Source: a virus | Taxonomy: Duplodnaviria; Caudoviricetes | Reading direction: 5' to 3' (one strand) | Length of the DNA: 64,000 bases | Virus record (IMG/VR): IMGVR_UViG_3300037067_018912 | Span: 1 to 64,000 of that record | In this document: positions 33,001 to 36,000 of the stretch, piece after piece | Numbering within the stretch: the first letter of the stretch is position 1 | Layout: each line of letters starts with the position of its first letter | Position numbers: made by a program

Positions 33001-36000
33001 GGGCAGAGTGTGATAGGTGACAGCACCTACAATCAGCATGCCTCCCATAGTGGTTTCCCGGAAGTGTTTGAAGTCCTCCAGTATCCGCCAAGGGATTTCA
33101 TTATCGATCCCGATCGTGCCATCAACGGCGACGGCAGCAATCGCAATTAGTTTGGGTTTATCAGTCATTAGGGGTGTTAAAATACTATTCTTTTGTTATT
33201 TATGCCAATTTTTTTCCATTTAAAAGTTCACGCAAAAATTCATTTTTCTTCCCACCAATCAATTCCAACCAATCGTTATGAATCTTATCTACCGACGAGC
33301 CGTCCAATAAAACCATAGAATTCAATTCATCGTTGGTCTTGATTTTCAGTTTGATACTATACATCGGATCGTTGCCAGGATTCACCAATTGATCGAGATA
33401 ATCAACAAAATCCGGGTAATCTTCTTTATTAAAAACCCTTTCATCCACAATAAAACACACTGCCGTAAGGGCGTTATTCAAATCGGGTTCGTTGAAATAT
33501 GCGTGTTGAATCTCATTCATCCTTAATTCGTCCGATATGGTGTTCAATGAACCCCTAAAAACAGGACTTATCGATTCATTAGTCGTACCACCATTGAGGA
33601 TAATCCACGTCTTCCAATCATCAATGAAATCGATGAATAAATCGGTTTGACCGTATTTCCTTGCATATTCCAACGCTGCATGTCCCGCTTGTATCGCTTG
33701 CTGTATCGGCGATATGTTGTAAGGCACAAAAAAATACATACGTAGTTCAAGTCTGTCTTTCATAAAGATTCTTCTTTTTCGTTATAGGCTACAACCGCAT
33801 CAATAAATTCTTGTGGTGGTTTATAGTTGTGCGTTTCAATATAATGTATAATCATTTCCGGAGCGGCATATGTCTTCCCATCGTGTTGAAAAATATATTC
33901 TCCATTACCATGACGATCACGAATAATAAAAGTCGAATCGTTTTCTTTGTATGTAGTAACATCACAAAAATCACAACTATGAAAACCTCTATAAAGATTT
34001 TCCTTTTTCTTGGTTCTCAATTTTTTTATAACTTCCTCCTTTTCAGGGAAATCGCCAACAGGAAATTCTTTACCCCTTTCAAGCCATCCAATATTTAAAG
34101 CATTGACGTGTTCGGTATGCCCGTAACCATATAGCGTTAGATCAGCAAAATACATAATTTTAACAGTTCGTGTGATTATTAACACAATAATACGAAAAAA
34201 ACCTGAAAGTGTTAAGATATTTTAGAGGTTTTTTTCGTAATTGATAGAATCGAGGTATTCGTCCTGTGTTGCGGATGTCCAAGTGATAATGAAGAATCTT
34301 TCAGTTTCATTGTCGACGTGAACCACATAGTGGAAGGCGAAAAATTCGTTGTCATCAGTGCCGTAAATGGCATAATCGGAGTAAAGTTTGAGTGTGCCGG
34401 GAGGTATCTCGAAATCTTTCCGGATTTGAACGGCCTGTTCGTGGATGTAAACAGCCATTTGTTGAATGATTTTCTTGAGTTCTATGTTGGTTAAAGCACT
34501 CATATAAAACCACTTTAACATAAATACTTCAACAAATGCAAGAACCCTTTTCGGGAAAAATTTTTAGGCTGTTTTCCTTTATGGATCGGCAAAAATTTTT
34601 CAGGAAATTTTGCGAGGTTTTAAAAACTGGTTTTATCTTCATGAAACCAGCAAAATTAGGTTTGCGAAATCTTTCCTACCCGGTAGGGTTTCTTTTAAAG
34701 GCGTTCAGGCCAATAATGGCACGTTATCCACCGATTCAATACGAAGCCACCGTATTAACTTTCGTGACCGAAGCGGGGTTCGAACCCGCACCCGTTGGTT
34801 TACCTACGTGGGTTTTATCCACCGAGCATGCCACGTGCTGACTTTACTCCGCTTGCGCTGACGAGGTTCTGCGTGTACGTGACTTTGGAACGTCTCTTCT
34901 CAAGACATGGCCTTGCCTATTAGGCGATCCGGTCAAATTCAATCTTTATCAATGAAATTAATATAATCCTCCAACCCCAAATCCTTTCCGCTTCCATAAA
35001 TATATCCGACGACAAAATAAATCACTTTTCCATCATTTTGTCGGACCAACGACATTAAAAAATCGGGTGCACCATCAACAAATGTTGATCCTGGTGAATA
35101 AAACAGTCCCATATGACCAACGATTTTTTCATAATTTTTCACCCAATCGAGGTTCAATAACTCCTCCCGTGTGTTGACCTCGTGTTCCGTTTCCTCGAAA
35201 CCTTCAAAAAAATTAGGAAACCTTCTTTTTATTTTCATCGCATCCTTCTTTCTTCTTCGTCGGTTATATATCCGGTTGTGGAATTGCCCCAAAATCCGTG
35301 ACCGTGATGCTTCTCCCAATTCTCAATAGTCCCGTAACCTTGCAGGGCGTCTCCCGAATTACGGCTTTCCGGCTTCGCTTCCGGTTTTGATTCCACACCC
35401 CTTTTCAACCGCTTCTTTGACTTTTTCATATATTATAACAAATTTGTAAGATAATCTATGCAAGTATCGCCTTGTTCCATCTCCTTTTGAACCAATTCTT
35501 TGAGCCTTTTTCTCTTGTCCTTATCCATCTTCCTTGTCTTTAAGACTCGAAGCATTGAGATCAGGTTTTTCAACGGTGTAAGTTTGTTACGAATATCCGC
35601 ACCAATAGCATCACCGTCGATTATATCCAATACGACGAGTTCGAAATCATCAAAACTCCAACCCTGCATGTCATAACCCGCATACAATTCTTTGAGTTTC
35701 TCCATTGTTGCAGTTATTGGCTGCAACCTTGGGATTTCCGTCGTGTAAACCCCAAGCAGGCACATAAAACTACTATTCATCTCAATATGGACAAACTCTT
35801 TCGAACTTTTCTTTCTTAATGTCTTGAATTTCATTTTATTACCACACGGGTATTTTCGTGTTCTCTTTTACGTGCATCCTATGATATCTGAAATAACCAT
35901 CCACCCAAAGCAGCCTGGTGCGCAGTTCGGTGTGTTTAAACTCGGTGATTTCCCGTTCTTGATCGTCTGTAATGGTAGTTATATACCCCATTAACCTGCC

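Follow-up and report, generated by a model that had tools for sequence, protein, structure and literature searches.

The window analysed here comprises 64,000 nt, taken from the start of a complete phage genome of 357,275 nt with direct terminal repeats. The roughly 60 ordinary tRNA genes of this phage and its tmRNA gene lie mostly at 249–283 kb; a normal tRNA-Leu(GAG) and two tRNA-His(GUG) are already part of this set, and the separate tmRNA gene lies at genome positions 257755–258118. An RNA gene framed like a tRNA is located at 34765–34934 of the window; no ordinary tRNA gene is closer to it than 125 kb, and the main tRNA arrays are 215 kb away. It is preceded on its 5′ side by genes for adenylosuccinate synthetase, an ATP-grasp protein, DNA ligase and deoxyribosyltransferase, and followed on its 3′ side by DHFR, NUDIX and helicase genes. 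Only 4 nt separate the RNA from the stop codon of an uncharacterised ORF before it, so that the RNA and the DNA ligase cluster probably share a transcript; no sigma-70 promoter adjoins the RNA. The phage also encodes RtcB and a CCA-adding domain. Its host probably belongs to the Bacteroidota, because a Bacteroidota-type bipartite promoter is 6-fold enriched in the non-coding DNA of the phage and Shine-Dalgarno motifs are not enriched. The features of the tRNA frame and the adjoining ORF are as follows.

34939–35319, minus strand: uncharacterised upstream ORF, with its stop 4 nt before the RNA
34765–34934, minus strand: whole tRNA-framed RNA gene, 170 nt
34928–34934, minus strand: acceptor stem, 5′ strand; G1 is invariant
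34910–34925, minus strand: D arm, Leu-like; its stem is lost in three homologues
34791–34826, minus strand: oversized variable arm, 30–43 nt including flanks, with one stem and a freely varying loop
34773–34789, minus strand: T arm
34765–34772, minus strand: acceptor stem, 3′ strand, and discriminator A73, then C74; CCA is not encoded

The tRNA frame described in the earlier note was recovered in full, with an acceptor stem of 7 bp (one of them G-U), a discriminator A, a D arm of 4 bp, a T arm of 5 bp and a distance of 120 nt between the D and T arms. Such a frame occurs once in the window and in 0 of 300 first-order resampled windows; it is real and not a product of chance. ARAGORN makes no call on the window by default and calls an intron-containing tRNA-Leu(gag) when run with intron search. 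Rfam gave no match to the query RNA at the gathering score, nor at E ≤ 10, and nothing relevant for the query and its homologues L118 and L131 with gathering and E-value thresholds. The RF00005 score of L118 is 18.5 bits for a cut-off of 29. Among the features of a decoding tRNA (RF00005), the acceptor stem, T arm and discriminator are present; a 7-nt anticodon loop with a conserved anticodon is missing (the unspliced RNA has no such loop), and no covariance-model or ARAGORN call is obtained unless an intron is allowed. Two earlier descriptions have to be revised: the D arm had been considered not typically Leu-like and yet its nearest counterpart is the D arm of the phage's own tRNA-Leu(UAG), and the branched variable arm with two hairpins is replaced in homologues by one long stem with a variable loop. 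A14, A15, G18, G19 and U48 are invariant in five homologues. Besides, the T arm (34773–34790) shares 18 identical nucleotides with a phage tRNA carrying a CUA anticodon (amber suppressor-like; genome 282954–282971), and a crude test of coding density did not clearly indicate that the phage recodes TAG. An 11-nt repeat is shared by the variable arm (34815–34825) and the downstream trailer (34724–34734), and is not kept in the variable arms of homologues.

Homologues were searched by using the ligase gene and two flanking genes as handles, together with sequence patterns. Five further distinct members were found (L095, L096, L118, L135 and L131), giving with the query a family of six RNAs of 159–173 nt, hereafter type A. 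All members share one genomic slot. They come from huge phages related to the query phage, with DNA ligases that match the query's at only about 60% identity. L131 was detected with 155 bits by a covariance model built without it; it lacks the GG of the D-loop and has lost A58 (U at this position), but keeps every helix of the folded module described below. Likewise, L095 lacks U8 and has an intact module. Outside this slot, blastn against isolated phages gave matches to the T arm only and no type A member, a pattern scan of GTDB genomes gave 80 loci with type A in none of them, and the 77 metagenome matches to a 16-mer of the D arm were all due to chance. A model of the module alone found nothing beyond type A genes in 12 phage records and no match in 151 sampled Bacteroidota genomes, a sample that cannot prove absence. 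No published description was found in the searchable literature, itself incomplete. Type A is a real, conserved family, not described in that literature, of probably non-decoding tRNA-shaped phage RNAs.

In these RNAs the place of the anticodon loop is taken by a module of about 70–80 nt (RNA 26–108) that forms a three-way junction on the equivalent of the anticodon stem.

34905–34909, minus strand: anticodon-stem equivalent, 5′ strand (RNA 26–30), pairing with RNA 104–108
34883–34904, minus strand: hairpin Pa (RNA 31–52), which buries the supposed anticodon; its 6-nt loop GAGWCG is nearly invariant
34875–34881, minus strand: helix Pb, 5′ strand (RNA 54–60)
34847–34865, minus strand: module tip (RNA 70–88), a short stem in a tentative register, with a conserved GUCA bulge and a GNRA loop
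34827–34838, minus strand: Pb 3′ strand and anticodon-stem 3′ strand, contiguous (RNA 97–108)

Helix Pb (54–60/97–103) leads through a conserved internal loop to the tip, and the conserved unpaired motifs are the GAGWCG loop, an ACGCA internal loop and the GUCA bulge beside the GNRA loop. The anticodon-stem equivalent is 100% paired, with one compensatory and two one-sided changes; Pb is 97.6% paired with three compensatory pairs, the query itself having one broken pair (A-C). Over the whole RNA, 94.8% of the cells are paired in the five full sequences, with double changes in 16 of 39 pairs; none of 500 shuffles reaches the observed value, and slid controls give 28–41%. For the module alone in six sequences, the figures are 95.7% paired, double changes in 8 of 23 pairs and 0 of 500 shuffles. 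These covariation events come from six related sequences and are not independent, and the shuffle figures are not probabilities because the sequences are few and related. RNAalifold yields the same junction unprompted, with the tip in a different register; single-sequence folding favours other folds for each homologue, by 2.5–13 kcal/mol over the version with the proposed tip. The local hairpin ATGTCT/AGACGT, suggested earlier as a competitor of the anticodon arm, shows no compensatory change and has its central pair broken in four of the six sequences. Mean identity is 82% in the insert, 76% in the acceptor stem and T arm, 56% in the D region and 53% in the variable arm. On this comparison the insert is the selected part, under stronger selection than the frame that would serve as its carrier. 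No antisense match of 13 nt or more to the phage genome was found besides the T arm, and no rRNA profile gave a match; one of 18 rRNA comparisons gave p = 0.005 (L096 with the 23S H20 region of one species), which the other five members did not repeat, and mimicry of rRNA is not supported. Likenesses to the c-di-GMP-I aptamer, SRP helix 8 and group I R/S elements were discarded, the pairing order being wrong by inspection and no Rfam match being obtained.

The slot occupied by type A harbours tRNA-framed RNAs of 79–188 nt in related phages. When 27 slot RNAs were compared, the 21 that are not type A fell into about 14 groups with no similarity between their interiors. Many have a Leu-like D arm and the same type of acceptor, and in one case two near-identical frames enclose unrelated interiors. 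Rnl2 and Thg1 genes are often located downstream of the slot. In addition, two to five RNAs, each tRNA-framed or closed by a stem, can stand in an array before Rnl2 and Thg1; their interiors are unrelated, and the spacers between them are boxA-like.

L131:4467–5493, L129:5409–5984, L295:4993–5692 and L095:12832–13431: tRNA-framed arrays
L119:1684–1867 and L131:4802–4986: second conserved interior type of about 185 nt, in which a motif of two parts is repeated twice
L081:12121–12226, and in L084, L110, L119, L120 and L133: type of about 105 nt with a 4–5-nt loop in place of the anticodon
34620–34764, minus strand: conserved structured trailer of about 145 nt, a separate module found after many tRNA-framed RNAs

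In the type of about 105 nt, a long arm bears a palindromic GTGCAC loop that is conserved. An opposite-strand ORF seems to be inserted in a tRNA-framed gene in three records (L095:13432–14320, L108 and L133:5795–6680), where a decayed T arm is left before the trailer. The trailer itself consists of a covarying hairpin with a pseudoknot loop, a long-range helix, a terminator-like hairpin and a U run; the pseudoknot has 3 bp, with one compensatory change (L133) among 20 aligned homologues. Its 3′ half, which holds a TAnnTTTG box, is joined to another 5′ half in L079, L083, L084 and L295, so that part of the trailer may be a promoter. No Rfam match was obtained for the trailer, and HDV/theta, pistol, twister and permuted RNase P were rejected by inspection of the pairing order.

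More RNAs with a tRNA frame, and either a long insert or a shortened anticodon loop, are present elsewhere in the query genome.

331879–332087 (minus), 294148–294353 (plus) and 293581–293746 (plus), genome positions: further tRNA-framed RNAs
265389–265501 (plus), 274636–274716 (plus) and 293840–293907 (plus), genome positions: further tRNA-framed RNAs

A homologue of the RNA at 293.6 kb is present in the complete carrier genome G002. Also conserved in G002 is an array (genome 159050–159950, minus strand) of tRNA-like RNAs in which a short stem module is repeated; it is followed by an ORF of 542 aa without Pfam match (156898–158526, minus strand).

Several known RNAs resemble type A in part. 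In bacteriophage T4, species 1 (rnaC) and species 2 (rnaD) are RNAs of 120–140 nt annotated as small stable RNAs without assigned role (PMC3014915, PMC12685909). Like type A, rnaC has a perfect T arm and an acceptor-like strand after a long structured interior that is not an anticodon arm; unlike type A, it has no D arm and no evident sequence likeness, and the T4 RNAs lie within a tRNA cluster whereas the query RNA is far from the phage tRNA genes. Furthermore, the interior of type A is a defined junction on the anticodon stem, accompanied by a long variable arm. No T4-like record appeared among the blastn matches in the phage collection at E ≤ 1. T4 species 1 RNA is the best functional analogue of type A, and not a homologue. 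The conserved 80–115-nt anticodon-loop inserts of Lak megaphages, described as 'enigmatic' tRNA introns whose removal is unproven (Devoto et al. 2019, PMC6784885), share with type A a huge phage, a tRNA frame, the position of the insert and the lack of an Rfam match. However, Lak genes have short variable loops, AT-rich inserts often with a T-loop and, for tRNA-Thr, an allele without the insert, whereas type A has a variable arm of 30–43 nt, no stable anticodon, a GC-balanced insert and no such allele found. Removal of the insert leaves a normal tRNA of one isotype in Lak genes, in contrast to type A. Between its tRNA ends, tmRNA (RF00023), like type A, has a large domain where a tRNA has its anticodon loop; the query RNA differs from it by its length of 170 nt, A73, a C3-G70 pair instead of G3-U70, a full D stem and the absence of a called tag frame. 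Ala identity and the tmRNA pseudoknots are likewise missing, and neither ARAGORN nor Rfam at default score made a tmRNA call. Engineered tRNA scaffolds for RNA expression carry a cargo on the anticodon stem of a tRNA that provides processing and stability. Type A differs in being natural and in its long variable arm, which is additional. The term 'tRNA scaffold' occurs in PMC4923196. Soil data have also revealed irregular tRNA polycistrons (PMC7609411).

The earlier note had left two possibilities, an unspliced tRNA mimic or an intron-containing tRNA-Leu(GAG). The former is supported by the insert, which is the most conserved part and covaries; the latter does not fit a would-be anticodon that varies and is buried. 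It is true that ATGTC can pair with GGCAT, that removal of RNA 37–100 (34835–34898) produces a 7-nt loop containing GAG, and that this 64-nt excision gives a U-U-G-W-G-G-U loop with G37 in all six members. Together with the ARAGORN call obtained with intron search, the RtcB of the query genome and the Rnl2 and Thg1 genes after the slot in several relatives, this would suit a tRNA for Leu or His matured by an unfamiliar splicing route, as for the Lak introns. But all six possible registers of a 7-nt loop give differing amino acids among the phages, and the register proposed in the earlier note (GAG or GUG at 34–36) would decode Leu in three members and His in three, all with A73. The pair 54–103 is compensated (C-G/U-A), whereas the pair 31–103, needed after splicing, is C-A in L095. 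The spliced products would retain a variable region of 30–43 nt, three of five are not called as tRNA even at a relaxed score, core tRNA bases are missing in L131 and L095, and none of the type A members found is an insert-less allele. As for known intron classes, the earlier judgement that a group I intron would need a longer insert stands: the insert has 64 nt instead of about 200 or more, ends in C/U and not in a terminal G, and shows neither a P3–P7 core nor an Rfam match. It was also right that there is no bulge-helix-bulge, since in the covarying fold the cut sites fall within helices Pa and Pb; an archaeal-type intron lacks here both its junction motif and its splicing endonuclease (PF01974 is absent from four complete phage genomes), the inferred host being bacterial. 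A search for RNA ligases in three complete carriers found RtcB only in one, Rnl1 and Rnl2 only in another and none in the third, hence no consistent ligase; the latter genome, G002, lacks RtcB, Rnl1, Rnl2 and EndA, and a splicing endonuclease is absent from all three. RtcB supplied by the host may act as a ligase. Splicing to tRNA-Leu is unlikely because the anticodon is buried, the isotype is inconsistent, the frame has decayed in L131 and one carrier has neither ligases nor endonuclease; we regard maturation of type A as any intron-containing tRNA as improbable, and the RNA is likely unspliced and non-decoding.

If the RNA remains unspliced, the tRNA frame might chiefly serve processing, by fixing where the trailer begins at its 5′ end, the trailer being the working part. 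Each of the 20 genuine trailers comes straight after a T arm and acceptor, regardless of the interior, and five of the six type A genes are followed by a trailer. We nevertheless find this explanation unlikely: it leaves the top conservation of the module unexplained, type A and trailer are about 900 nt apart in L095, and in arrays several framed RNAs are not each followed by a trailer. A Y-RNA-like molecule whose module docks on a Ro60-type ring protein is also improbable. The CUUG strand of the tip faces an RCGRAG strand, a loose resemblance to a Ro60 site, and the Y RNA YrlA (RF02553) combines a tRNA-mimic domain that is a substrate of RNase P and the CCA enzyme with a second module (Chen et al. 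2014, PMC4201824). However, YrlA is permuted, with T before D, carries the motif GNCGAAN0-1G near its 5′ end and has Ro60 as a neighbour. Type A has none of these; the motif (PMC4201824) is absent from every member, no Ro60/Rsr gene was found within about 4 kb and Rfam gave no YrlA match. No TROVE domain was found in the genome or in the candidate protein of 542 aa, whose gene is 120 kb away, whereas nearly all YrlA genes are at most 4 kb from Ro60. A decoy made of the whole tRNA, directed at anticodon nucleases, synthetases or sensors of uncharged tRNA, in which the insert merely removes the cleavable anticodon, would agree with the Leu-like core with A73 and A15:U48 of most members, and such an RNA could be charged or sensed after CCA addition. 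Yet the frame decays in L131 and L095 and a decoy does not need a conserved insert; a decoy for anticodon nucleases is unlikely because the anticodon loop is not exposed, and we give little credence to the decoy explanation as a whole. Finally, the broken A-C pair in Pb of the query and the drifting D arms might recall a decayed pseudo-tRNA or an integration scar, as had been envisaged in case of unconstrained inserts and decayed stems. Compensatory changes are instead present in every helix, between phages with ligases about 60% identical to that of the query; this covariation largely refutes a pseudo-tRNA, which we consider extremely improbable.

The most plausible interpretation, which we hold to be probable, is that type A is an unspliced, non-decoding tRNA-scaffold RNA released by tRNA-processing enzymes and presenting a protein-binding module. 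The RNA would be made at the 3′ end of the longer DNA-ligase cluster transcript, and host RNase P together with 3′ trimming would free it. G1, U(−1), the D/T elbow and C74 are the features recognised by RNase P and CCA-adding enzymes. In type A, G1 is invariant, U(−1) is found in five of six members and C74 in six of six, and the elbow is kept in most; C74 alone is also encoded, without CCA, in most ordinary tRNAs of this phage. CCA would then be added by the phage's own CCA-adding enzyme, making the RNA stable as a tRNA-like molecule. The conserved loops of the module could bind a protein, most likely so as to sequester or inhibit a host factor that binds RNA or acts against phages. Cargo modules would be exchanged between phage lineages, as on an engineered scaffold. 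Extending this to the whole slot, we tentatively suggest as a possibility that it holds exchangeable natural tRNA scaffolds, each with an RNA aptamer neutralising a host defence or RNA-binding protein, with the adjoining RNA ligase and Thg1 genes in support.

Oversized phage tRNA genes are usually dismissed as pseudogenes or annotated as intron-containing tRNAs. For both the Lak 'enigmatic introns' and T4 species 1 RNA, a scaffold function is an alternative that can be tested. Type A provides a defined module of about 80 nt supported by covariation, and its slot points to over a dozen further undescribed RNA folds. If the suggestion made for the slot is true, it would be the RNA counterpart of the variable anti-defence gene islands in huge phages of the Bacteroidota type.
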